This document shows, piece by piece, positions 1 to 8,560 of a stretch of 32,117 bases of DNA (the stretch's first letter is position 1; each line of letters opens with the position of its first letter). The position numbers and the translations under genes are program-made. The notes beneath the pieces are model-generated. The model had not been told where the DNA came from. It worked only from the letters and a program-made list of their open reading frames with translations, and searched no databases. This DNA is from a bacterium (GTDB taxonomy: Bacteria; DRYD01): contig JBCNVB010000029.1 in assembly GCA_039630415.1 (NCBI GenBank), positions 1 to 32,117 of the forward strand, in the 5' to 3' direction.

Positions 1-267
1 ATATTAACACTAATTAGAAACTTTGTAGCACATTTATCTAGAAGGTCATTCTTCAAATTAGCAGAATTAATACTAGACCTAGAAAATACGAATACTGAAA
101 CCAAAAGTCACATTACTATTGAAAATGTATATAGGATATTGTATAGTTCAGAAATATCTGATACAATTAATAAAATAATAAAAAATCTAAAAGTTTATTT
201 ACTTCATGAATTAGGTTTTGACAGCCGCACAGTATATTCCCTTTTTAGTTATAGAAATATCCCTTAA
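1..267 (+). CDS. 3' end of a gene entering from the left edge; putative HEPN-motif (RxxxxH) ribonuclease domain
   Basis: Frame 1 is open from base 1 to TAA at 265-267 (ILTLIRNFVAHLSRRSFF...YRNIP*). It is absent from the ORF track because it has no start in the window. RNFVAH fits the HEPN R-N-x-x-A-H motif. Confidence 0.55.
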   Translation: MLTLIRNFVAHLSRRSFFKLAELILDLENTNTETKSHITIENVYRILYSSEISDTINKIIKNLKVYLLHELGFDSRTVYSLFSYRNIP

Positions 268-297
268 TAGAAATAAACTTTCTCAAATTTTTATCTT

Positions 298-329
298 TAA
301 TTTCGTCAAATATGCATTTGACGAAATTA
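298..329. terminator. Perfect 14-bp inverted repeat between convergent genes; likely bidirectional terminator
   Basis: TAATTTCGTCAAAT (298-311), loop ATGC, ATTTGACGAAATTA (316-329); lies between the stops at 267 (+) and 395 (-). Confidence 0.55.
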
Positions 330-394
330 GTAGAGTAAAATATTTTCTATCAACTTTTGGACTTATTAGATATTTTTTGCTAACTAAGCTTGTT

Positions 395-940
395 TTATTT
401 ACTTATATTTTTACACAATTCTTTCAATCCAAAGGTGTTAACGAAAAAACTATTTTTATATTTTTTAAGTGCTTTATATATATCATTTCTTTGTTTAGAT
501 ATTTTTTCAGCATTACTTTTCGAAAGCAGATTAAAATAAGTACCATCAAGAAAAGATAAATATAATATCCTCTTTTTCACCATTGTCCAGAAAAGCGAAA
601 CATTCTTTTCTTCTTTCATTATAGTAATTAAATTCAATTTTTCAATATTTTTATTCTCTTCTATTGTGAAATCTTCAACTTCAGCAGTAATGGTTACGTT
701 GATTTGAGAATTGTTATGTTTATTAGTATTCCTATATAAAGCCTCATTGAAATCTTCTCTATTAAGTTTCACACTGGCAAGATCATAATCTCCGAACAAA
801 AGATAAATAGTCCTCAATATATTAGACTTACCGGAGTTATTTTCACCAATTAGAATAACCGGCTTATCTTTGGGAAAATCTATTTTTACTTCACTTATTG
901 ATCTATAGTTCTTGATGTATATCGATTTTAGCCAGGGAAT
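395..940 (-). pseudogene. Truncated N-terminal part of an OLD-family/AAA_15 (ABC-type) ATPase, ~181 aa
   Basis: ORF 395..817 extends in frame upstream as IPWLKSIYIKNYRSISEVKIDFPKDKPVILIGENNSGKSNIL. This has the typical 'IxIKNYRSI' start and Walker A GENNSGKS (824-847). No Walker B or TOPRIM domain before the stop. Confidence 0.7.
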
Positions 941-1066
941 AACAATTACTCCCTACAGAATTTTGTAGATATTTCATTATACTCTCAATATATTAAGTTT
1001 GCTCTTCATCAAACTGACATAACATTTTTCTTAAAGCCTTTATCTAATTTCTTTAATTCAAAATAT

Positions 1067-1669
1067 TTATTCCTTACCATTTACAACCTCATAATTAAAA
1101 TATGCAGCTATAAACTCCGGGTCTGTTGAATTTCTGAATTTTCCTCCTACTGGATAGTACCCTTCAAAATGTGAAAACATATCATTTTCAGGATATAACG
1201 ATCTAAAACTCATTTGCAAGATAATGTATCCTTTACTAAATTCGTCTATAGAATTTAGGCTCACAATTTCAAGGAAAGGAAAATATAGCCCGTATATTTT
1301 AGAATTTCTCTTCACAATAAATAAAAATTTGTAAAGGGAAGGTTCACTGGAATTTATATTACATATCCTGTAAATATTTTCTAGTTCCTCTCTTTTAAGA
1401 ATGATAATCTCAATCTTTAGTGAAACCAGAGGTTTATTGAATCTCTCTCCTATGGAAGATGTTTTTTGAATTGATGATATTTCAAAGTTTAATTTACCAG
1501 TTACAAAGCCTATCTGCCTCCAGAAGATTTCAAAATTATTGATAGTAGAATTAAAAATCTTGGTGTACATAACAAAGTGACTGTAAAAATCCTTATAGTT
1601 AATGTTTAAAAAGTACCATATACCTTCTACCATTTCAATAGATTTATGTATTACAATCAATTCCCCCAA
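1067..1669 (-). CDS. Hypothetical protein, beta-rich; pattern resembles a phage tail-tube fold
   Basis: 200-aa ORF overlapping the end of the NDT-like gene; start uncertain (TTG 1669 or ATG 1633). The resemblance is by eye only. Confidence 0.6.
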   Translation of the reverse strand: MGELIVIHKSIEMVEGIWYFLNINYKDFYSHFVMYTKIFNSTINNFEIFWRQIGFVTGKLNFEISSIQKTSSIGERFNKPLVSLKIEIIILKREELENIYRICNINSSEPSLYKFLFIVKRNSKIYGLYFPFLEIVSLNSIDEFSKGYIILQMSFRSLYPENDMFSHFEGYYPVGGKFRNSTDPEFIAAYFNYEVVNGKE

Positions 1670-2918
1670 ACAGGTTTTTTACTCTATCTTCAAGTTTAGT
1701 CTTTAAGTCTTCTAAATCTTCATAGACAATAAAGTTATACTGTTTAATATCAAAGTGAATTTCATCAAAAGTTTTATCTTTCCCATTTTCTATTTTTCGC
1801 TTTATAATTCCTATAACTTGTTTACCAGATCCCAAAGCATAACCCATTTCATATATTACACCATCATTGTTATTGGTTAGATCAGCTACTACAAATTTAC
1901 TATCTTTTATTGTAGGGAGTATAAAATTGATTATATAGTCAGCAAAATGTGTTCTATCTGCTCTTATAGCTTTATAGCCTAGTCCATCTAAAACTTTACT
2001 TATAACTTCATATACATTGTTAAATTCTTCTGAAAATGGCATAGCTACAAAAACTTTATCCCGGCATATTTCGTTTTCATAGGCTTCAACGGAAAGTGAA
2101 AAACATAATGATGGAAACATGTGCATTGCAGAAGTTTCCAAACCACCTGTTTCTAGAAACTTCAACTCCAAGTAATTTGCTAGTTGCTTAGTACTAATCA
2201 CTCTCATTAAATCTTTAGAGTCTATATCTCCTGCCTTTTTAAGTAAATCAAAATCATAAGTAAAATTAGGTAAATTATAAGTAAAAACAAGGTTGATAAA
2301 ACCTTTCTTTAAAAATTTTTTCAAATATTCATAGAAATTATCAAAATTTTTGAAGTAGCCTAATGAGTAAAGGTAAAAAAGCGTAAGAACAGAATTATTA
2401 TTAATTTTGAAAAAAGGATCTATTAAATTCTGGCATTCATTAGAATCACCATATTCTAATTCTGGTATAATCCATGGAATAACAATATATTTTGTACTGT
2501 TATTTATAAGTCTTCTACAAGCATTAATAAAAAGTTTTGTTTGATTAATAGCATATTCATTTTTTCTTAATATTTCTAGATTTTTATTAAACTGTTGTAT
2601 ATTATCAAAAGTGAATATTTCTGTGTCTTGTGTTTTTTCAAATAATGTCCTCAACCAAGAAGAAATTATAAAAAGATATGGTTACATTCTTCCCATTTCT
2701 TTAATCTCAAGGATATAATCATATACATTCTCTGAAACTCTAAACACTCCACATCTAATACATCTTACTTCAATAAAACTTTCATGATTTGGTTCCTTGT
2801 ATGAAATTGAACTACAAATAGGACAATTTTCATAATTAACATTTTCATTTGTTCTAAAGTCGAAGTATTTTTTTATCTTTAATTTTGGGGGTTTTAATTG
2901 TATATATCTTTCCCACAT
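1644..2918 (-). pseudogene. Zn-ribbon + C-terminal nucleoside 2-deoxyribosyltransferase (NDT)/TIR-like protein, interrupted by one in-frame TAA at 2682-2684
   Basis: ORFs 2682..2939 and 1644..2654 are in the same frame (…EMGRM*PYLFIISSWLRTLFEK…). The N-terminus has CPIC…CIRCG. The C-terminus has VFVAMPF…RAD…VVADLT…GVIYEMGYA…FDI. Probable ATG at 2918 after a GGGGA SD. Confidence 0.75.
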
Positions 2919-2983
2919 TCTGACAAAGTCCCCTTTCAAAATTACCTATTCCATTTGCAAACATCCTGCTGCAAAGCGATTTT

Positions 2984-5900
2984 TTATTTTGTATTGTTCA
3001 AAATCGATGTCCTTATTATTTTTTGTTCTTCATCTGTCAGATCATACAATTTAAAAACCCAATCATCTACTTGATTTTCTAGATCTTGAGTACTAAATAC
3101 AGGATTATTTTGCTTAAGATTTGTTATTTTATTGACTAAATCATGTATGTTGCTACTTAAAACTCTGTTTTCTTCTGTAATCTCAGGCACAGGTATTCTT
3201 TCTACATACTGCTTTATCCAACGATTAGAAGCCTCAGACAAAGAATAACAAACTTTAGTTATGTAAAAAAAAGAGACTGCAGAATTAAGAAAACCCAGAA
3301 GAAATGTTATTCTCTCACCTGTTAATATATAACATGTTTGGAGAGTATAAAACCTTTGCGAATCATAGCTAAATGAAGGTATCCAGCTCATTTTCTTGCC
3401 AAACTATCTTTTCCTTTTCAAATTCTGGGTAGTAATCACAATGTCTTAATTCCCACCAATAATCGCCTTGATCATCTCTGTTATATAGACCTTTACCCTT
3501 AGATTTGAAATCCTCAAAACTCTTCAAATATGAATACACAGAATGAAAAGTATTTTTGAAAAATTCTTCAGGTTCTTGTTTATCTTTATTTTTGTTAGTC
3601 CATCCAGCAGGAATCACTATCAACCACAGTCCCTTCCATTCGTAGTAGTATCTTTGTATGTCTCTTCCTTTTAAAACTGGTTTTATTATTTTCTCGGTTC
3701 TTTCTCTTTCTTCTTTTGTTCTACAGTTTTTCAAAATTTTCTCCCTAGTTTCAGTGTCTATTACGAAAGCTTCATTGAAACCTGTAATTATTCCTCTGTA
3801 TATTTTCACATTCCAATCTTTAAGCGGTTTTCCTAATTTTTCAATTTTTTCTTTTATTCCCAAAATCTTCCTATCTTCCAAAACCAAAATATCAGTTAAC
3901 ATATCTTTCTGGAACATACTCTTTTGATTCTCATATACATATTTAATGACCTGATTGTGATCTTTCAAAGTTGACGGAACATTAACAAAATAAAACTCAT
4001 GTTCTTCTTCAAACTTCCTCTTTCTTAAAATTACTATACAAGTATCTACAGACTGTTCAAAAACCGGATATCCTCCAAAATCTATAATTTTCAATATTTC
4101 ACTTTTTTCTTTTAATAGTTTTCTTAATTTGGAACCATAAGAAGCTCTCATCCATTTGTTAGAAGATATATACGCTAAAATACCATCATTCTCCAAGAGG
4201 TTTAACCCCTTCTCAAAAAAATATACATATATATCAGCTTTGGAATCAAAAACTTCATATTTTTGATTCTTAAGGGTTTCTTTGATATCTTTAATTTTTT
4301 CTTGCCTTACGTATGGAGGATTTCCTATCACAATATCAAACTTCCTATCAATAGCAAACATCCAAAAAGGATCAAACCAATTAGTAGCTTTCCTGATGCT
4401 GAGAAAAGACATCAAAACTTGCAATTTTCTCAACTTCTTCATTTTTTATCCCCGTCTTTATTAATAAATATTTCATTCTTTCCCTTATTTGTTTTGCTTT
4501 TTCCTGTAACCTTTTTTTCTGAGTTCTAGTTTTAATAGAGAAATGCTTCTTGTATATTAATTTTAGTTCTTCCTGAAGTTTTTTTGCTTCTTGGTTAACA
4601 AACTTCAATGTTCCTTCACTCTCTAATTTTATGGGAGTATTTATAGCAACAAATTTGGTTTCCAAATGAGGTAAAGGTCTTATACCAAAATTGGGCTTTG
4701 AAAAATCAACTTTCTGATCTATTAACAAACTCAGAAAAAATCTTAACTTACATATCTGAATCGCTATAGGTTGTATATCAACTCCATATAAACAGTTCTG
4801 AATAATATACAATTTCCTTGAGTAATCCGGATAATTCAGGAGTTCATCAAAGTCCTGCTCTATCTCTTTTATTGCTTGATTTATATCCATTTTCTCTCCC
4901 AACTCAGAAACTACTTTTATATCTTCTCTGGCTCTATCAAGTTGTATATCAAGCCACAAACTATTATCTGGATCCACCTTGTTAAGTATGTGAACCAATT
5001 TGTGAAGCATTCCCACAGGAAAAGCTCCAGAACCCACTGCAGGATCTAACACCTTCAAATTATCCACCGCTCTTACTATTGCCTTCCTCTCGTTTTCAGA
5101 TAAATCAATATTTTCATCACTATAAGATAGTAATTTAACTAACTTTCTTTCCTCTACCTCAGTTTTATCTTTGAAATACTCCAAAAGTGATTCATCAAGC
5201 ATAAAATCCACTATTTCCTTGGGTGTGTAATACGAACCTGTGGACTTTCTCGCTGTAGTACTAGTTTCAGGATTGTATGAAGCTAACAAGTTTTCAAAAA
5301 CATTACCTAATAACTCAGGATCCAAAGAAACCTCCACATCAATTGGAGAAGACTCATCAACCGTAAAGTTATAATCCTTAAAAATATTAATTAAACTCCT
5401 AACTTTTACTATTCGCCTCTCTCCATAAAAATCTGATAAATCTTCCTCCCGATAATCACCAAAAAACAAATAATCTGGTAATACAGCTCTCCTTTTTTCA
5501 TTCCTGCTAAATCCATCAATATATTCGTTATCTTCATCTATAAAATTTTCATCTAAACACACAAATAGACCACCATTAATGAATGGAACTCGTTCAAAGA
5601 TATTTATAAAATCTTGCTCAGAAATAAGAAGCTTATCTTGATACCTATAGAGAGTTTTTACACCATATTGAGTTCGATTCCTAAGAAAATCAGAATTTTC
5701 TGCAAATTTCCTTTCCCCCACTTCATTATTAAGTGTTGCAAAAAATAAATTCTGTAGGATAACATTGTAGTAATTACTACTACCTAAGAAATCCTTCACA
5801 ACCTTAACAAGAAACTTTGGATCAAAAATATTTTCAGGAACCAATCCCTTTTCCTTAAGAAACCATACAAAAATTAATCTTGTAATCAATCTAATCAAAT

Positions 5901-6507
5901 TCTCCTCAATCTTACCACCAGGAAAATATATAATGTTTTGTTTTGAAAGTTTAAGAGCCCAAGCATACCAATTCTGAACTTGCGTAAAAAACTGTTTCGT
6001 TAACGGATAAATCGAAAAAGATTGTTTTATCTCATCTAAACTTCCAAAACTGCATTTTAACATATTTTCATAAAATGTCCTGTTTGGCTTACCGGGACAA
6101 ACAAAATAAGTATACCTCTTGTAATAACTATACTCTATTCTTGAATAAAAAGGAACAGTGTAAACAAATGAAAACCTAAACATTTTTTCATCATTATAGA
6201 AAAAGAATAATCCAGCATCAACCTGAAAACGTGCAAGCAATTTCTTAGCCATCTCATACTGCCTCTTCTTACTACTCCTTTCATTTAAATCTGAAAGCTT
6301 AATTACAAATACCAAAACTTTTTGATATTCTAAATTAAGCTCCCCTACTTTCAATATCTCTTCTACCTTATCAAATTTTTGGGCTTCAATATCAGAAATC
6401 TTTATCCTATTTTCTAAAACTTCAAATCTCTTTAATAAAAGAAAAGATTTAAGATTATCAACCGAAAAATCGTTTATAAGATTTCTAATTATCATTTCTT
6501 GATCCAT
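2984..6507 (-). pseudogene. Type IIG / Eco57I-like fused restriction-modification enzyme (N6-adenine MTase plus TaqI_C-like specificity domain), split into three ORFs by two +1 frameshifts
   Basis: Motifs GSYYTP, DPAVGSGAF (motif I), GVDIQ, GNPPY (motif IV), WWELRHCDYYPEFEKEKIVW and a C-terminal 'VFKLYDLTDEE'. The pieces join at ~4393 and ~3391-3394. ATG 6507 follows an AAGGGGG SD. Confidence 0.88.
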
Positions 6508-6709
6508 ATAACTTGCCCCCTTACACAGCAATATAATTCTTCTGTTAAGCTTTATTTTATTAATCTTTTAGATTTAAATCTTTTGTTAACCTTTTGAATT
6601 TTTTATTTAAAACCAAAATACATTCAAGAAAATGGTTAAAGATGAAACCCAATTCTATCAAGATAACCATAAAAAGATTATCAAAAAAAAAGTTATAATA
6701 CTATACATT

Positions 6710-7040
6710 ATGGACAAGAAGTTTCCAATTGGTATTAGTTCATTTGAAGAAATAAGAGCTGGTAATTATTACTATATTGATAAGGCTCATTTTATTAAAA
6801 AACTTTGTAATCAAGGAAAATATTATTTTCTGTCTAGACCTCGCAGATTTGGTAAATCTCTATTCTTAGACACCATCAGGTGCGTTTTTGAAAACAAAAA
6901 AGAACTATTTCAAGGTCTTTTTTTTAGAAAACAATTGGGATTGGAAAAATTCATATCCCACTATTAGATTCTCTTTCGATACCTATTTTGAAAATTCTTC
7001 TGAACTCAAAAACTTTTTAAAATCAAGACAGGATTGCTAG
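6710..7040 (+). pseudogene. Remnant of an AAA-ATPase-like (PF09820-type, normally fused to a PD-(D/E)XK nuclease) gene
   Basis: MDKKFPIGISSFEEIR…YYYIDK…YFLSRPRRFGKSL is the family N-terminus. After a frameshift in T8 (6918-6925) it continues LENNWDWKNSYPTIRFSF and stops at TAG 7038-7040, far short of the usual ~500 aa. Confidence 0.85.
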
Positions 7041-7138
7041 ACTTCTTTTGCCTTCAATCTAAATATAATTTAAAAACTATAGACTTTTATTTTCTTGTTT
7101 AAAAGCTTTCATACTATCTTTTTTTCTTTATTGCTCTA

Positions 7139-8560
7139 TTATTCTATCTTTACTACTATTAGATCATAGTTTGAACCATTGTGACTAGAACCAGAAACAT
7201 AAATTTTACCGTTTTGATCTACATAGATAGAATTTCCTTCTTCACTGTTACCTCCAGCTATATTATGAACAATTACATGTCCACCAGAACCAAATGTGGT
7301 ATCTAAACTACCATCACTGTTTAACCTTGTTACTGCTAGATCAGTATCTGAAACATTGCGAGCCTGACCAGCAACATAAACCTTGCCTGTTTGATCTAGG
7401 TAGATGGAACGACCTTCTTCCCAGTTACCTCCAGCTATATTATGAACAATTACATGTCCACCAGAACCAAATGTGGTATCTAAACTACCATCGCTGTTTA
7501 ACCTTGTTACTATCAAATCTACATCTAAACTATTCCAACCTTGACCAGTAACATAAATTTTACCATTTTGATCTACATAAATGGAATAACCTCTTTCCCA
7601 GTTGCCTCCGGCTACGTTATTAAGAACAACGTGCCCTCCAGAACCAAATGTATTGTCTAAAGTGCCATTACTGTTTAGCCTTGTTACTATTAGATCTTCA
7701 TCTGAAACATTATAACTATAACCAGTGACATAAACTTTACCACTTTGATCTACGTATATTGAATAACCTACATCATCTGAATTTCCGCCAGCTATGTTAT
7801 GAAGTATAACATGTCCACTAGAACCAAACGTATTGTCTAAAGTACCATTGCTGTTTAGTCTTGTTACTATTAGATCTTCATCTGAACCATTCCAACTACA
7901 ACCAGTTATGTAAACTTTACCTGCTTGATCTACGTATATTGAATGGCCATAATCATACCAGTTACCACCAGCTATGTTATGAAGGATAACATGCCCTCCA
8001 GAACCGAATGTGGTGTCTAAACTACCATCACTGTTTAACTTTGTTACTATTAGGTCAATAATTAAACCACTGCTACTCTCACCAGTAACATAAACTTTGC
8101 CAGCTTGATCCACGTAGATTGAATTGCCTTGTTCCCAACTGTTATTGCCAACTATGTTATTAATGACAACATGTCCGCCAGAACCAAATGTGGTATCTAA
8201 ACTACCATTACTGTTTAATCTTGTTACGATTAGATCTTGATCTGAAGTATTCGAACTCTCACCAGTAACATAAATTTTACCATTTTGGTGCACGTAAATT
8301 GAATAGCCGTATTCGTGCCGGCTACCGCCAGCTATGTTATGAAAAATGACTGTAGCATCTAGGTCTCCATCATTATCTAGGTCCCTACCTAATGGAGTAC
8401 CAAAGGTATTAGAAACTTTTCCTACAGCATGTACATAACCTGAAAAATTGGTATTATCGTTGAAGCCAAAAAATCTGGCACCTCTGGATTTACAGGAGTA
8501 CATAAAAATACTGATGAATAGCGTAATTATAGGTATACAAATGATTATGAATATTTTCAT
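7139..8560 (-). CDS. Delta-60 repeat beta-propeller protein, probable lipoprotein
   Basis: Hydrophobic leader ending MYS-C23. Seven ~59-60-aa units of the type SIYVDQxGKxYVTG…DLIVTRLNSDGSLDTTFGSGG. Confidence 0.85.
   Translation of the reverse strand: MKIFIIICIPIITLFISIFMYSCKSRGARFFGFNDNTNFSGYVHAVGKVSNTFGTPLGRDLDNDGDLDATVIFHNIAGGSRHEYGYSIYVHQNGKIYVTGESSNTSDQDLIVTRLNSNGSLDTTFGSGGHVVINNIVGNNSWEQGNSIYVDQAGKVYVTGESSSGLIIDLIVTKLNSDGSLDTTFGSGGHVILHNIAGGNWYDYGHSIYVDQAGKVYITGCSWNGSDEDLIVTRLNSNGTLDNTFGSSGHVILHNIAGGNSDDVGYSIYVDQSGKVYVTGYSYNVSDEDLIVTRLNSNGTLDNTFGSGGHVVLNNVAGGNWERGYSIYVDQNGKIYVTGQGWNSLDVDLIVTRLNSDGSLDTTFGSGGHVIVHNIAGGNWEEGRSIYLDQTGKVYVAGQARNVSDTDLAVTRLNSDGSLDTTFGSGGHVIVHNIAGGNSEEGNSIYVDQNGKIYVSGSSHNGSNYDLIVVKIE
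7150..8350 (-). repeat. Intragenic tandem repeats of 177-180 bp encoding the propeller blades
   Basis: For example, 7247-7315 is identical to 7424-7492 (69 bp, offset 177). The units near 7642 and 7822 are offset by 180. Confidence 0.9.

Follow-up and report, generated by a model that had tools for sequence, protein, structure and literature searches.

We found that the end of one contig from a hot-spring bacterium probably carries an ordinary, broken Abi-like gene with a nucleoside deoxyribosyltransferase (NDT)-like domain and, beside it, a separate and unexplained orphan gene, both lying in a decaying defence islet. The first-pass annotation of this DNA had proposed a new two-gene defence module, in which the NDT-like enzyme is coupled to a lone protein resembling a phage tail tube. 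In our analysis, the orphan gene is most likely unrelated cargo of the islet, or the leftover of a neighbouring module such as that of the OLD-like ATPase gene, now truncated, which lies 120 nt downstream. A tail-tube mimic that works with the NDT enzyme is probably not what it encodes.

The window, by which we mean the whole stretch of DNA that was analysed, is the entire contig JBCNVB010000029.1 (32,117 nt) and belongs to a 1.4-Mb hot-spring assembly that is 89% complete. The contig ends only 1 kb past the orphan open reading frame (ORF), and thus the 'lone' status of this ORF can be checked on one side only. The features on which our argument depends are as follows.

1-267, plus strand: C-terminal part of a gene that runs off the contig, with an R-N-x-x-A-H string; coding score 0.195 bits per codon
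395-946, minus strand: AAA_15/OLD-family ABC ATPase, N-terminal 183 aa with Walker A present; truncated
1067-1669, minus strand: orphan ORF, fold not assigned; 200 aa from a TTG at 1669, or 188 aa from an ATG at 1633
1366-1616: segment swapped in the sister variant; 251 nt inside the orphan ORF replaced by 11 other letters
1644-2654, minus strand: 336-aa ORF with a C-terminal NDT-like N-glycosidase domain (residues about 196-330); residues 1-195 divergent
1848-1850, minus strand: codon of Glu269, in GVIYEMGY; presumed catalytic nucleophile, invariant in the family
2682-2684, minus strand: in-frame TAA dividing the zinc-ribbon ORF from the NDT-like ORF; the only stop in 432 codons
2682-2939, minus strand: 85-aa ORF with an N-terminal CxxC...CxxC zinc ribbon, by hhalign to the family profile
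2984-6531, minus strand: type IIG restriction-methylase gene, broken into collinear parts of 716, 357 and 135 aa
6632-6967, plus strand: 111-aa piece from the N-terminus of an AAA-ATPase_like protein (PF09820, E = 2.2e-30), covering positions 1-69 of the 201 in the profile

The three minus-strand ORFs of 200, 336 and 85 aa lie where the first-pass annotation had placed them, and all the motif strings quoted from them are present in the translations, including GVIYEMGY in the 336-aa ORF. The surrounding 7 kb or so is a decaying defence islet at the end of the contig, with a type IIG enzyme split three ways, an OLD-like ATPase cut to 183 aa and a second ATPase present as a fragment. The orphan ORF had been described as sitting between a type IIG gene and an OLD-like ATPase gene. 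Both neighbours are there, but the ATPase is an N-terminal fragment. The type IIG pieces cover positions 393-720, 807-1113 and 1118-1244 of the 1247 positions of the PADLOC model PDLC03612. There are two frameshifts in the gene, both at A-runs, and no single ORF of about 1,100-1,250 aa; across 2938-3421, the window agrees with a Logan contig that represents its own allele. The ATPase fragment matches AAA_15 (E = 1.5e-13, profile positions 3-169 of 374) and AriA (E = 8.9e-15, positions 3-187 of 373), and it also scores on the GajA, Old and PtuA models. Its remaining C-terminal half was sought in every frame and was not found. The islet illustrates the joint decay of defence genes in a hot-spring genome of 1.4 Mb.

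Family scans with Pfam and the defence models gave no match for the ORF at 1-267, whose R-N-x-x-A-H string may be HEPN-like. A plus-strand ORF at 218-559 was ruled out as a gene (codon score 0.02, antisense to the ATPase fragment). Repeats within bases 1-7200 were short, chance-like pairs only, the scan for promoter-like sites was uninformative (17 sites, with 18.6 expected) and the scan for terminator-like sites returned none, including between the NDT-like and orphan ORFs. The genome of the same genus that we compared with the window has an MFS gene alone in common with it (57% identity), so the insertion site of the islet is not comparable. As had been noted previously, the window ORFs that were scanned included no phage structural family, a view that the contig end limits to one side.

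The reading of the 85-aa and 336-aa ORFs as one zinc-ribbon/NDT-like gene, broken by a single stop, was borne out. The 85-aa ORF aligned with the family profile at its N-terminal end (hhalign probability 88.5%, E = 2.7e-6), and the homologues in the family begin with the same zinc ribbon. The NDT-like protein of the window matched PF05014 with E = 6.8e-5 and 23.4 bits, which is below the cut-off of 28.8; among the aligned family members, 19 of 20 matched this profile at E <= 1e-3, the best at 2.7e-8. The same ORF matched phrog_16139 (2.3e-22) and the PADLOC TIR effector model (1.6e-5), and TIR_2 was matched by one of the 20 family members. The structural model is confident in the C-terminal domain (pLDDT about 90 for residues 200-330). 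When it was compared with the PDB by Foldseek, it was closest to DNPH1, to NDTs and to two CMP N-glycosidases, MilB and BcmB (probability 1.00, E = 7e-6 to 2e-5, target-normalised TM 0.54-0.78), with SPARTA TIR structures just behind the NDT structures at E = 3e-5. Residue E269 is invariant across the 20-sequence alignment, falls within the matched Pfam stretch (246-285) and may correspond to the known nucleophile, E98, in the enzyme from Lactobacillus leichmannii. Because the gene is divided by a TAA, it would be inactive or would be produced as two polypeptides.

The window gene belongs to a large and widespread family. In genomes that represent species, 526 out of 564 candidate stretches were confirmed as members. 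We fetched 80 family loci with their neighbourhoods (2935 ORFs in all), and the NDT ORF was recovered in 79 of them. The homologues are single proteins in which the region between the zinc ribbon and the C-terminal NDT-like domain is variable. Of the 79 NDT ORFs, 66 are 290-370 aa long, with a median of 318 aa, and the CxxC...CxxC zinc ribbon is fused within the first 90 residues at 55 loci, whereas in the window it is a separate ORF. By our own reading of 145 immediate neighbours, a gene for restriction, a nuclease, a toxin-antitoxin system or a mobile element adjoins the NDT ORF at 25 of the 79 loci. Type I hsdS/hsdR genes flank four loci (L007, L030, L038 and L070), MmeI-type IIG enzymes adjoin two others (L027 and L045), and 11 temperate phage records contain the domain. 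No PADLOC model matched the family apart from the weak TIR effector match. The family has no conserved downstream partner. Its 63 same-strand downstream ORFs fell into 55 clusters, the largest of which had five members (DUF559), and the loci in that cluster belong to possibly related MAGs of the Syntrophobacterales, Desulfobaccales and Thermodesulfobacteriota.

Known systems provide a framework for this family. Anantharaman et al. (2013; PMC3710099) describe Abi-type single proteins with a variable N-terminus and a C-terminal NDT effector. Like the window family, these proteins have a variable N-terminus fused to a flavodoxin-fold nucleoside deoxyribosyltransferase-like domain, are encoded by single genes with conflict or defence genes around them and have a predicted role as suicide effectors. 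They differ in the N-terminal module, which is AbiJ-NTD1 in the Abi-type proteins described there and a zinc ribbon plus an uncharacterised middle in the window family, and in that the window copy is split by a stop.

Retrons provide a second comparison, as RcaT of Retron-Sen2 is an NDT-like defence effector. The effector of retron Ec86 (type II-A) has an NDT-like domain with a catalytic Glu, according to the preprint, and a section heading in the same source states that, once activated, the system causes depletion of adenine and adenine derivatives (bioRxiv 10.1101/2023.08.16.553469). The Ec86 regulator consists of msDNA and reverse transcriptase and the NDT-like domain forms the N-lobe; in the window protein, the domain is C-terminal and its own N-terminal part would serve as the regulator. 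The window ORFs scanned with Pfam gave no match to a reverse transcriptase family. A third comparison is with the TIR-like NADase defences SPARTA TIR-APAZ and Swarozyc, the latter a DUF4062 defence that is reportedly activated by a phage portal protein (bioRxiv 10.64898/2026.05.01.722283). They share with the window NDT protein a flavodoxin-like fold class, a conserved Glu and the abortive-infection logic of a single gene or a few genes. The window protein differs from Swarozyc in having no DUF4062 match at E <= 1 (Pfam), and NDT-type structures outscore TIR structures slightly in the Foldseek comparison.

By analogy with the Abi-type proteins and the Ec86 effector, we propose that the N-terminal part of a family protein would detect a sign of infection. 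The NDT-like domain at the C-terminus, which has the invariant Glu (E269), would then cut an N-glycosidic bond in its substrate, a nucleotide or NAD-like molecule, and this cleavage would halt growth. As found, the window NDT gene is one more member, a broken one, of a predicted Abi-like effector family, and it has little significance in itself. The zinc-ribbon/NDT family is large, is often found inside restriction operons and appears experimentally untouched as far as our literature search went, which returned no experiment on this subfamily. Thus, it would be reasonable to test an intact member for defence against phages.

The orphan ORF is real coding DNA, beyond what chance would produce. 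In 200 random 32-kb sequences of islet composition, no ORF reached 188 aa (the longest was 173 aa), and the codon score of the orphan ORF is 0.205 bits per codon in frame compared with -0.38 and -0.63 in the other frames. The ATG at 1633 appears a likelier start than the TTG at 1669, because the one known relative, P0069, begins at the equivalent site. This ATG sits 10 nt past the stop of the NDT-like gene, and the TTG start would result in a 26-nt overlap. Either arrangement, with no terminator-like site in between, fits co-transcription of the two genes and hence a functional pair.

Relatives of the orphan ORF proved to be scarce. It had no family in Pfam (E <= 1), PHROGs (E <= 0.1), PADLOC or NCBIfam, and a word-indexed search of 5.8 billion proteins returned the self-match alone. 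Among 1.84 billion cluster representatives, the sole relative was P0069, an 84-aa fragment with 66% identity to residues 13-80. No loci were found in JGI metagenome contigs or in GTDB genome contigs, ten other genomes of the same order held nothing credible (best E = 5e-4, 30% identity over 69 residues), PDB sequences gave no match and tblastn against 50,697 phage records gave a single match, with E = 2. Judged from these searches, the ORF is taken to be a lineage-restricted orphan gene.

A sister variant of the locus co-occurs in the same samples, and in this variant the 5' part of the orphan ORF is disrupted, which we count as a sign of dispensability. In Logan contigs, X1 record 3 spans the swapped segment from 1365 to 1617, and X2 records 11 and 12 stop at the same two points. 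When the junction was read by hand, an in-frame TAG was found six codons past the ATG at 1633. The listed differences between the variants in the orphan ORF comprise 14 non-synonymous and 9 synonymous changes (23 in total), for a pN/pS of about 0.37; this value is based on a partial list, as 12 of the 37 differences of X2 record 11 are outside it. By this measure, the orphan ORF still appears to be constrained. For the window allele, the Logan contigs also show holes in depth at 1475-1608.

The likeness to tail-tube proteins had been read by eye from the order of motifs, and it did not reappear in our sequence and profile searches: the orphan protein matched no tail family in Pfam, PHROG, PADLOC or NCBIfam, and no PDB sequence. 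When the orphan ORF was aligned by hhalign with 30 DUF2001 tail-tube proteins, the probability was 0.2%, in a comparison that has low power because the query profile holds two sequences, and for which the DUF2001 alignment was built from 30 loci, all from one bacterial family. Five further genomes were checked for DUF2001 and none was found. The single-sequence AlphaFold model of the orphan protein has a pLDDT of 45.4 and is too poor to judge the fold; at this low confidence, it consists almost entirely of beta structure plus a single helix in the centre, which is compatible with a tail-tube-like sandwich. Foldseek searches with this poor model gave a best E of 0.043 (TM about 0.1) against BFVD and of 0.16 against the PDB, and the best Z in a wide fold search by VIA was 3.4. 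The structural check that had been suggested for 1067-1669 therefore gave no tail-tube or Hcp match, from a model too poor to decide the matter.

A language-model search was the one source of a tail-tube lead. Among 30 matches to named clusters, 8 were Phi812_tail_tube, 10 were DUF2001-bearing and 5 were Phage_HP1_Orf24 clusters, with scores of 0.92-0.93; in the DUF2001-bearing cluster that was displayed, the family is annotated on only 15% of the members. The recognition value in the atlas was 1759, compared with the tool's mark of 2300, and shared features numbered at most 157 of 256, compared with a mark of 170. In the tool's own calibration, one third of shuffled proteins have all ten of their ten best family matches in one clan. 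We regard this as a weak lead, consistent as to family and below the tool's level of recognition. The three families, namely DUF2001/XkdM (PF09393), Phi812_tail_tube (PF26461) and Phage_HP1_Orf24 (PF10772), the last of which is presumably a tube protein, are like the orphan in size (about 150-180 aa) and in being predicted to be beta-rich, and they were its closest clusters in this search. The orphan differs from them in having no profile or sequence similarity to them and no surrounding tail operon.

These results bear on the possibility that the orphan is a decaying tail-tube remnant of a phage or tailocin, without a functional link to the NDT gene. A remnant would account for the language-model lead, and remnants are to be expected where the neighbouring genes are all broken. 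In addition, as the contig ends 1 kb past the ORF, the assembly could be missing other phage genes that lie beyond it. However, the neighbours of the orphan are the NDT-like gene and, towards the contig end, an ATPase fragment rather than a tail gene, there is no PHROG match at E <= 0.1, and the entire 1.4-Mb assembly, at 89% completeness, has no match to Phage_sheath_1, Phage_tube, DUF2001, Phage_capsid or Phage_portal. We consider this explanation unlikely.

It is quite unlikely, in our view, that the orphan was the second component, with the OLD-like/AAA_15 ATPase, of a now-broken two-gene defence system of the Gabija/PARIS/Septu kind. The two genes are on the same strand with a gap of 120 nt, and the models on which the ATPase fragment scores best (AriA, GajA, Old and PtuA) all have a partner or a fused nuclease. 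Nevertheless, the orphan matches no PADLOC partner model. The ATPase gene usually comes first in systems of this type, which also counts against the idea.

We then come to the proposal that a host-kept protein with a tail-tube fold acts with the NDT enzyme, as a sensor, an antitoxin or a poison of assembly, and that the pair forms a new two-gene module. The genes are adjacent, on the same strand and overlapping or 10 nt apart, and the language-model search points to tail-tube clusters. There is also a precedent, as DSR2 is described as a SIR2 NADase defence that is switched on by a phage tail-tube protein (PMC10981675; PMC11087589). There, a tail-tube protein serves as the switch of a nucleotide-degrading defence enzyme, which is the same logic; in DSR2 the tail tube is supplied by the phage and the enzyme is a SIR2, whereas in the window the candidate is a host protein with a putative fold and the enzyme is an NDT. 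Against this, the orphan has no tail-tube match by sequence or profile and none by structure, although the model is poor, and the language-model values of 1759 and 157 are below their marks. The claim of a coupled module also finds no support among the relatives of the enzyme, as none of the 2935 ORFs in the 80 family loci resembles the orphan (phmmer, E <= 10), and thus none of the 79 NDT loci has a related neighbour. The family lacks a conserved partner, and the 5' part of the orphan ORF is replaced in the sister variant. On these comparisons, the orphan ORF is evidently no recurrent partner of the NDT family, and we believe that such a module is very unlikely.

We give very little weight to the most specific form of this proposal, that the orphan is a host copy, in tail-tube fold, of the phage trigger and regulates the Abi-like NDT enzyme as an antitoxin-like plug or a decoy. 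Among the papers listed by a literature search on tail-tube decoys in defence, none concerned a host tail-tube mimic, by title and the start of the abstract. If the tail-tube reading were true, the pairing of a host structural mimic with an effector that cleaves nucleotides would be new as an idea of regulation, and a host-kept trigger with an NDT enzyme would form a so far undescribed type of defence pair. In the decoy variant, the orphan protein would co-assemble with incoming tail tubes.

The window is one complete contig (C22, 32,117 bases) of a 1.4-Mb assembly of 31 contigs that is 89% complete. Its G+C content is about 26-34%, and parts of the region are present in two hot-spring metagenome runs. 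The defence genes form an islet in its first ~7 kb; outside the islet, the window genes are housekeeping genes (ATP synthase, ribosomal proteins, urocanase and others). The features are as follows.

1-267, +, C-terminal part of a gene truncated at the contig end, coding score positive
395-946, -, N-terminal half of an AAA_15/OLD-type ABC ATPase, 183 aa (P0070; Pfam, PADLOC)
1067-1669, -, orphan ORF, 200 aa
1644-2654, -, nucleoside deoxyribosyltransferase (NDT)-like ORF, 336 aa
2682-2939, -, zinc-ribbon ORF, 85 aa, CxxC...CxxC
2984-6531, -, type IIG restriction-methylase, three ORFs that are collinear pieces of one gene (PADLOC model PDLC03612)
6632-7040, +, N-terminal fragment of a PF09820 AAA-ATPase, 111 aa, beyond the restriction gene on its far side
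7139-8560, -, DUF5122/SBBP beta-propeller-repeat protein, 473 aa
24182-24613, -, HEPN-domain protein (PF05168, 3.4e-24)

The first-pass annotation had the ORF layout right, but its 'OLD-like ATPase' is really a 183-aa stump. It had also described a Zn-ribbon/NDT-like gene broken by a stop, and this is borne out. Read as one frame, 1644-2939 comprises 432 codons with a TAA at 2682-2684 as the sole stop. The 336-aa ORF matches PF05014 (E 6.8e-5; 23.4 bits, under the 28.8-bit cut-off), the PADLOC TIR effector model (1.6e-5) and phrog_16139 (2.3e-22). We found 67 homologues of the NDT protein; the full-length ones begin with a zinc ribbon, and the 85-aa ORF aligns with the ribbon columns of the family profile (hhalign probability 88.5%, E 2.7e-6). 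When 20 family members were aligned, 19 matched PF05014 at E <= 1e-3, and E269 of GVIYEMGY was among the invariant residues. AlphaFold with an alignment modelled residues 200-330 at pLDDT ~90 and the N-terminal part poorly. Foldseek with the C-terminal domain retrieved DNPH1, nucleoside 2'-deoxyribosyltransferases and the CMP N-glycosidases MilB and BcmB (E 7e-6 to 2e-5), and SPARTA TIR domains ranked just behind these NDT-type structures. The NDT gene was not found in the 10 other genomes of the order.

Members of the zinc-ribbon/NDT family behave as stand-alone single genes. Of 564 candidate stretches in species-representative genomes, 526 were confirmed as relatives; 80 loci were retained. 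An NDT ORF is present in 79 of them; 66 of these ORFs are 290-370 aa long (median 318), and 55 carry a ribbon motif within the first 90 residues. The 63 same-strand downstream ORFs fell into 55 clusters, the largest of which (n=5) consists of DUF559 proteins. Pfam annotations of the 145 immediate neighbours of the 79 loci were read to assign context classes. By this reading a restriction, nuclease, toxin-antitoxin or mobile-element family adjoins the NDT gene in 25 of 79 loci, while the neighbours in the remaining loci are housekeeping or without a name. Type I hsdS and hsdR flank both sides in loci L007 and L030, MmeI-type IIG enzymes occur in L027 and L045, and L070 and L038 also have type I hsdS/hsdR flanks. 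Further neighbour families are MvaI, GmrSD_C, Mrr, PIN, Phd, HicB and MazE; no tail-tube family was found among the 145 neighbours. The recurrence of this restriction-embedded placement makes an intact family member a sensible choice for a defence assay.

The NDT domain is also found in 11 temperate phage records (Streptococcus, Dorea). For Abi-like proteins, Anantharaman et al. 2013 (PMC3710099) predict a variable N-terminal domain joined to an NDT effector, a pattern that the zinc-ribbon/NDT family matches. The family also agrees with retron Ec86, which employs an NDT-like effector (bioRxiv 10.1101/2023.08.16.553469). We propose that the NDT protein, when intact, would work without a partner: the ribbon and middle region in its N-terminal part would detect an infection cue, and the C-terminal N-glycosidase domain would then cleave a nucleotide or NAD-like substrate, so that growth stops. 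Family context, together with the Ec86 and TIR-like precedents, is the basis for this proposed mechanism.

Although it is an orphan, the 200-aa ORF is a real gene and not a chance reading frame. None of 200 random 32-kb sequences of islet composition gave an ORF of at least 188 aa (longest 173), which is the ORF's length from the alternative ATG at 1633. The frame scores 0.205 bits per codon; other islet genes score 0.16-0.35 and housekeeping genes 0.30-0.38. Pfam, PHROG and PADLOC gave no family for it, and NCBIfam nothing meaningful. A word-indexed search of 5.8 billion proteins retrieved the ORF alone. When 1.84 billion representatives were scanned exhaustively with HMMER, only the ORF itself and P0069, an 84-aa protein with 66% identity to residues 13-80, came back. 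Searches of JGI metagenome contigs and GTDB genome contigs yielded no locus, and the 10 other genomes of its order gave two matches, both at chance level.

Logan contigs from both runs (sets X1 and X2) were placed on window bases 1-4000. They contain a second variant, the sister variant, that is commoner than the window allele and differs at ~8% of bases; over 1617-3420 the two are separated by 146 differences and 15 gaps. X1 record 3 links 1365 to 1617 via 11 other letters, within the orphan ORF, and X2 contigs stop at both junction points. Read by hand, the junction stays in frame yet sets a TAG six codons past the ATG at 1633. Because P0069 spans the segment that the sister variant lacks, the sister variant most likely lost it. 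The sister NDT gene has indels (+5 at 2315, -1 at 2632, -1 at 2756), and P0002, the protein called from it, begins only at residue 150; thus, the NDT gene looks broken there too, in a different way. Between the variants, orphan ORF bases 1087-1331 show 14 non-synonymous and 9 synonymous changes among the 23 differences listed (pN/pS ~0.37), whereas in the NDT domain (1617-2123) at most 25 base changes altered 9 residues (ratio roughly 0.15-0.2, by hand). The orphan ORF therefore appears to have been under some constraint, weaker than that on the NDT domain, with a divergence rate about double.

The first-pass annotation had proposed the orphan ORF as a candidate tail-tube-like partner coupled to the NDT enzyme. 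The sole positive sign of coupling is how closely the ORF follows the NDT stop. Against this, no conserved partner was found in the 79 family loci, and the ORF is lost in the sister variant. Most likely the orphan ORF is a mere neighbour, perhaps unrelated islet cargo or perhaps a partner left over from the ATPase module.

A tail-tube-like fold for the orphan ORF is itself unlikely. The likeness found no backing by sequence: beyond the negative family-library searches, a single match (E = 2) came from tblastn against 50,697 phage records, PDB sequence searches gave nothing relevant, and hhalign against 30 DUF2001/XkdM proteins, a low-power comparison, gave a probability of 0.2%. The structural model, of low confidence (pLDDT 45.4), is built almost wholly of beta strands, with a single helix around residues 93-103; with it, Foldseek reached E 0.043 (TM ~0.1) against viral models and E 0.16 against the PDB, and a Foldseek-independent fold search reached Z 3.4, all three within noise. 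A protein-language-model search weakly favours the tail-tube idea. It returned mostly viral clusters (148-178 aa), and the 30 rows of its named-only version (scores 0.92-0.93) held 8 Phi812_tail_tube, 10 DUF2001-containing and 5 Phage_HP1_Orf24 clusters; in the one DUF2001-containing cluster shown, DUF2001 is on 15% of members. This pointer is weak because recognition (1759) and shared features (141-157 of 256) lie under the tool's marks of 2300 and 170, and because first hits of at least 0.9 also arise for 4-10 in 100 shuffled proteins; for one third of all shuffled proteins, moreover, the ten best family hits all fall in a single clan. No sheath, P2-type tube, DUF2001, HK97 capsid or portal family was matched in the 1.4-Mb assembly.

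Taken with the NDT stop, the type IIG frameshifts and the stumps of the OLD-like and PF09820 ATPases suggest a defence islet that is decaying at a contig end within a small genome. The type IIG pieces span PDLC03612 positions 393-720, 807-1113 and 1118-1244 (model length 1247), and the two frameshifts fall in A-runs at about 3391 and 4442. Over 2938-3421 the window sequence is matched by an independent contig that carries the window's allele. The sister variant is one base shorter at 3391, a difference that may restore continuity between the last two pieces in that variant; these changes could be phase-variation-like homopolymer length changes or plain decay. The 183-aa ATPase, 120 nt from the orphan ORF, matches AAA_15 (1.5e-13, profile positions 3-169 of 374) and PADLOC AriA (8.9e-15), as well as the GajA and Old models, and no continuation was found in any frame. 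Its database gene call (395-946) begins at a codon that the plain ORF listing does not count as a start, so that this listing gives 140 aa (395-817).

PF09820 'predicted AAA-ATPases' are usually fused to a PD-(D/E)XK_9 nuclease domain, and at locus L006 a PDDEXK_9 protein adjoins the NDT-family gene. In five other loci (L008, L013, L023, L041, L060) an AAA ATPase of ~590 aa lies upstream of the NDT-family gene and DUF559 (Vsr-like endonuclease) downstream, possibly a three-gene unit; the five MAGs (Syntrophobacterales, Desulfobaccales, Thermodesulfobacteriota) may be kin. In the window, the DUF5122/SBBP protein bordering the islet has a signal-like N-terminus, and the HEPN protein sits amid housekeeping genes. 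The 1-267 fragment, which matched no family, contains an R-N-x-x-A-H string that we take to resemble HEPN/Abi_2 motifs.
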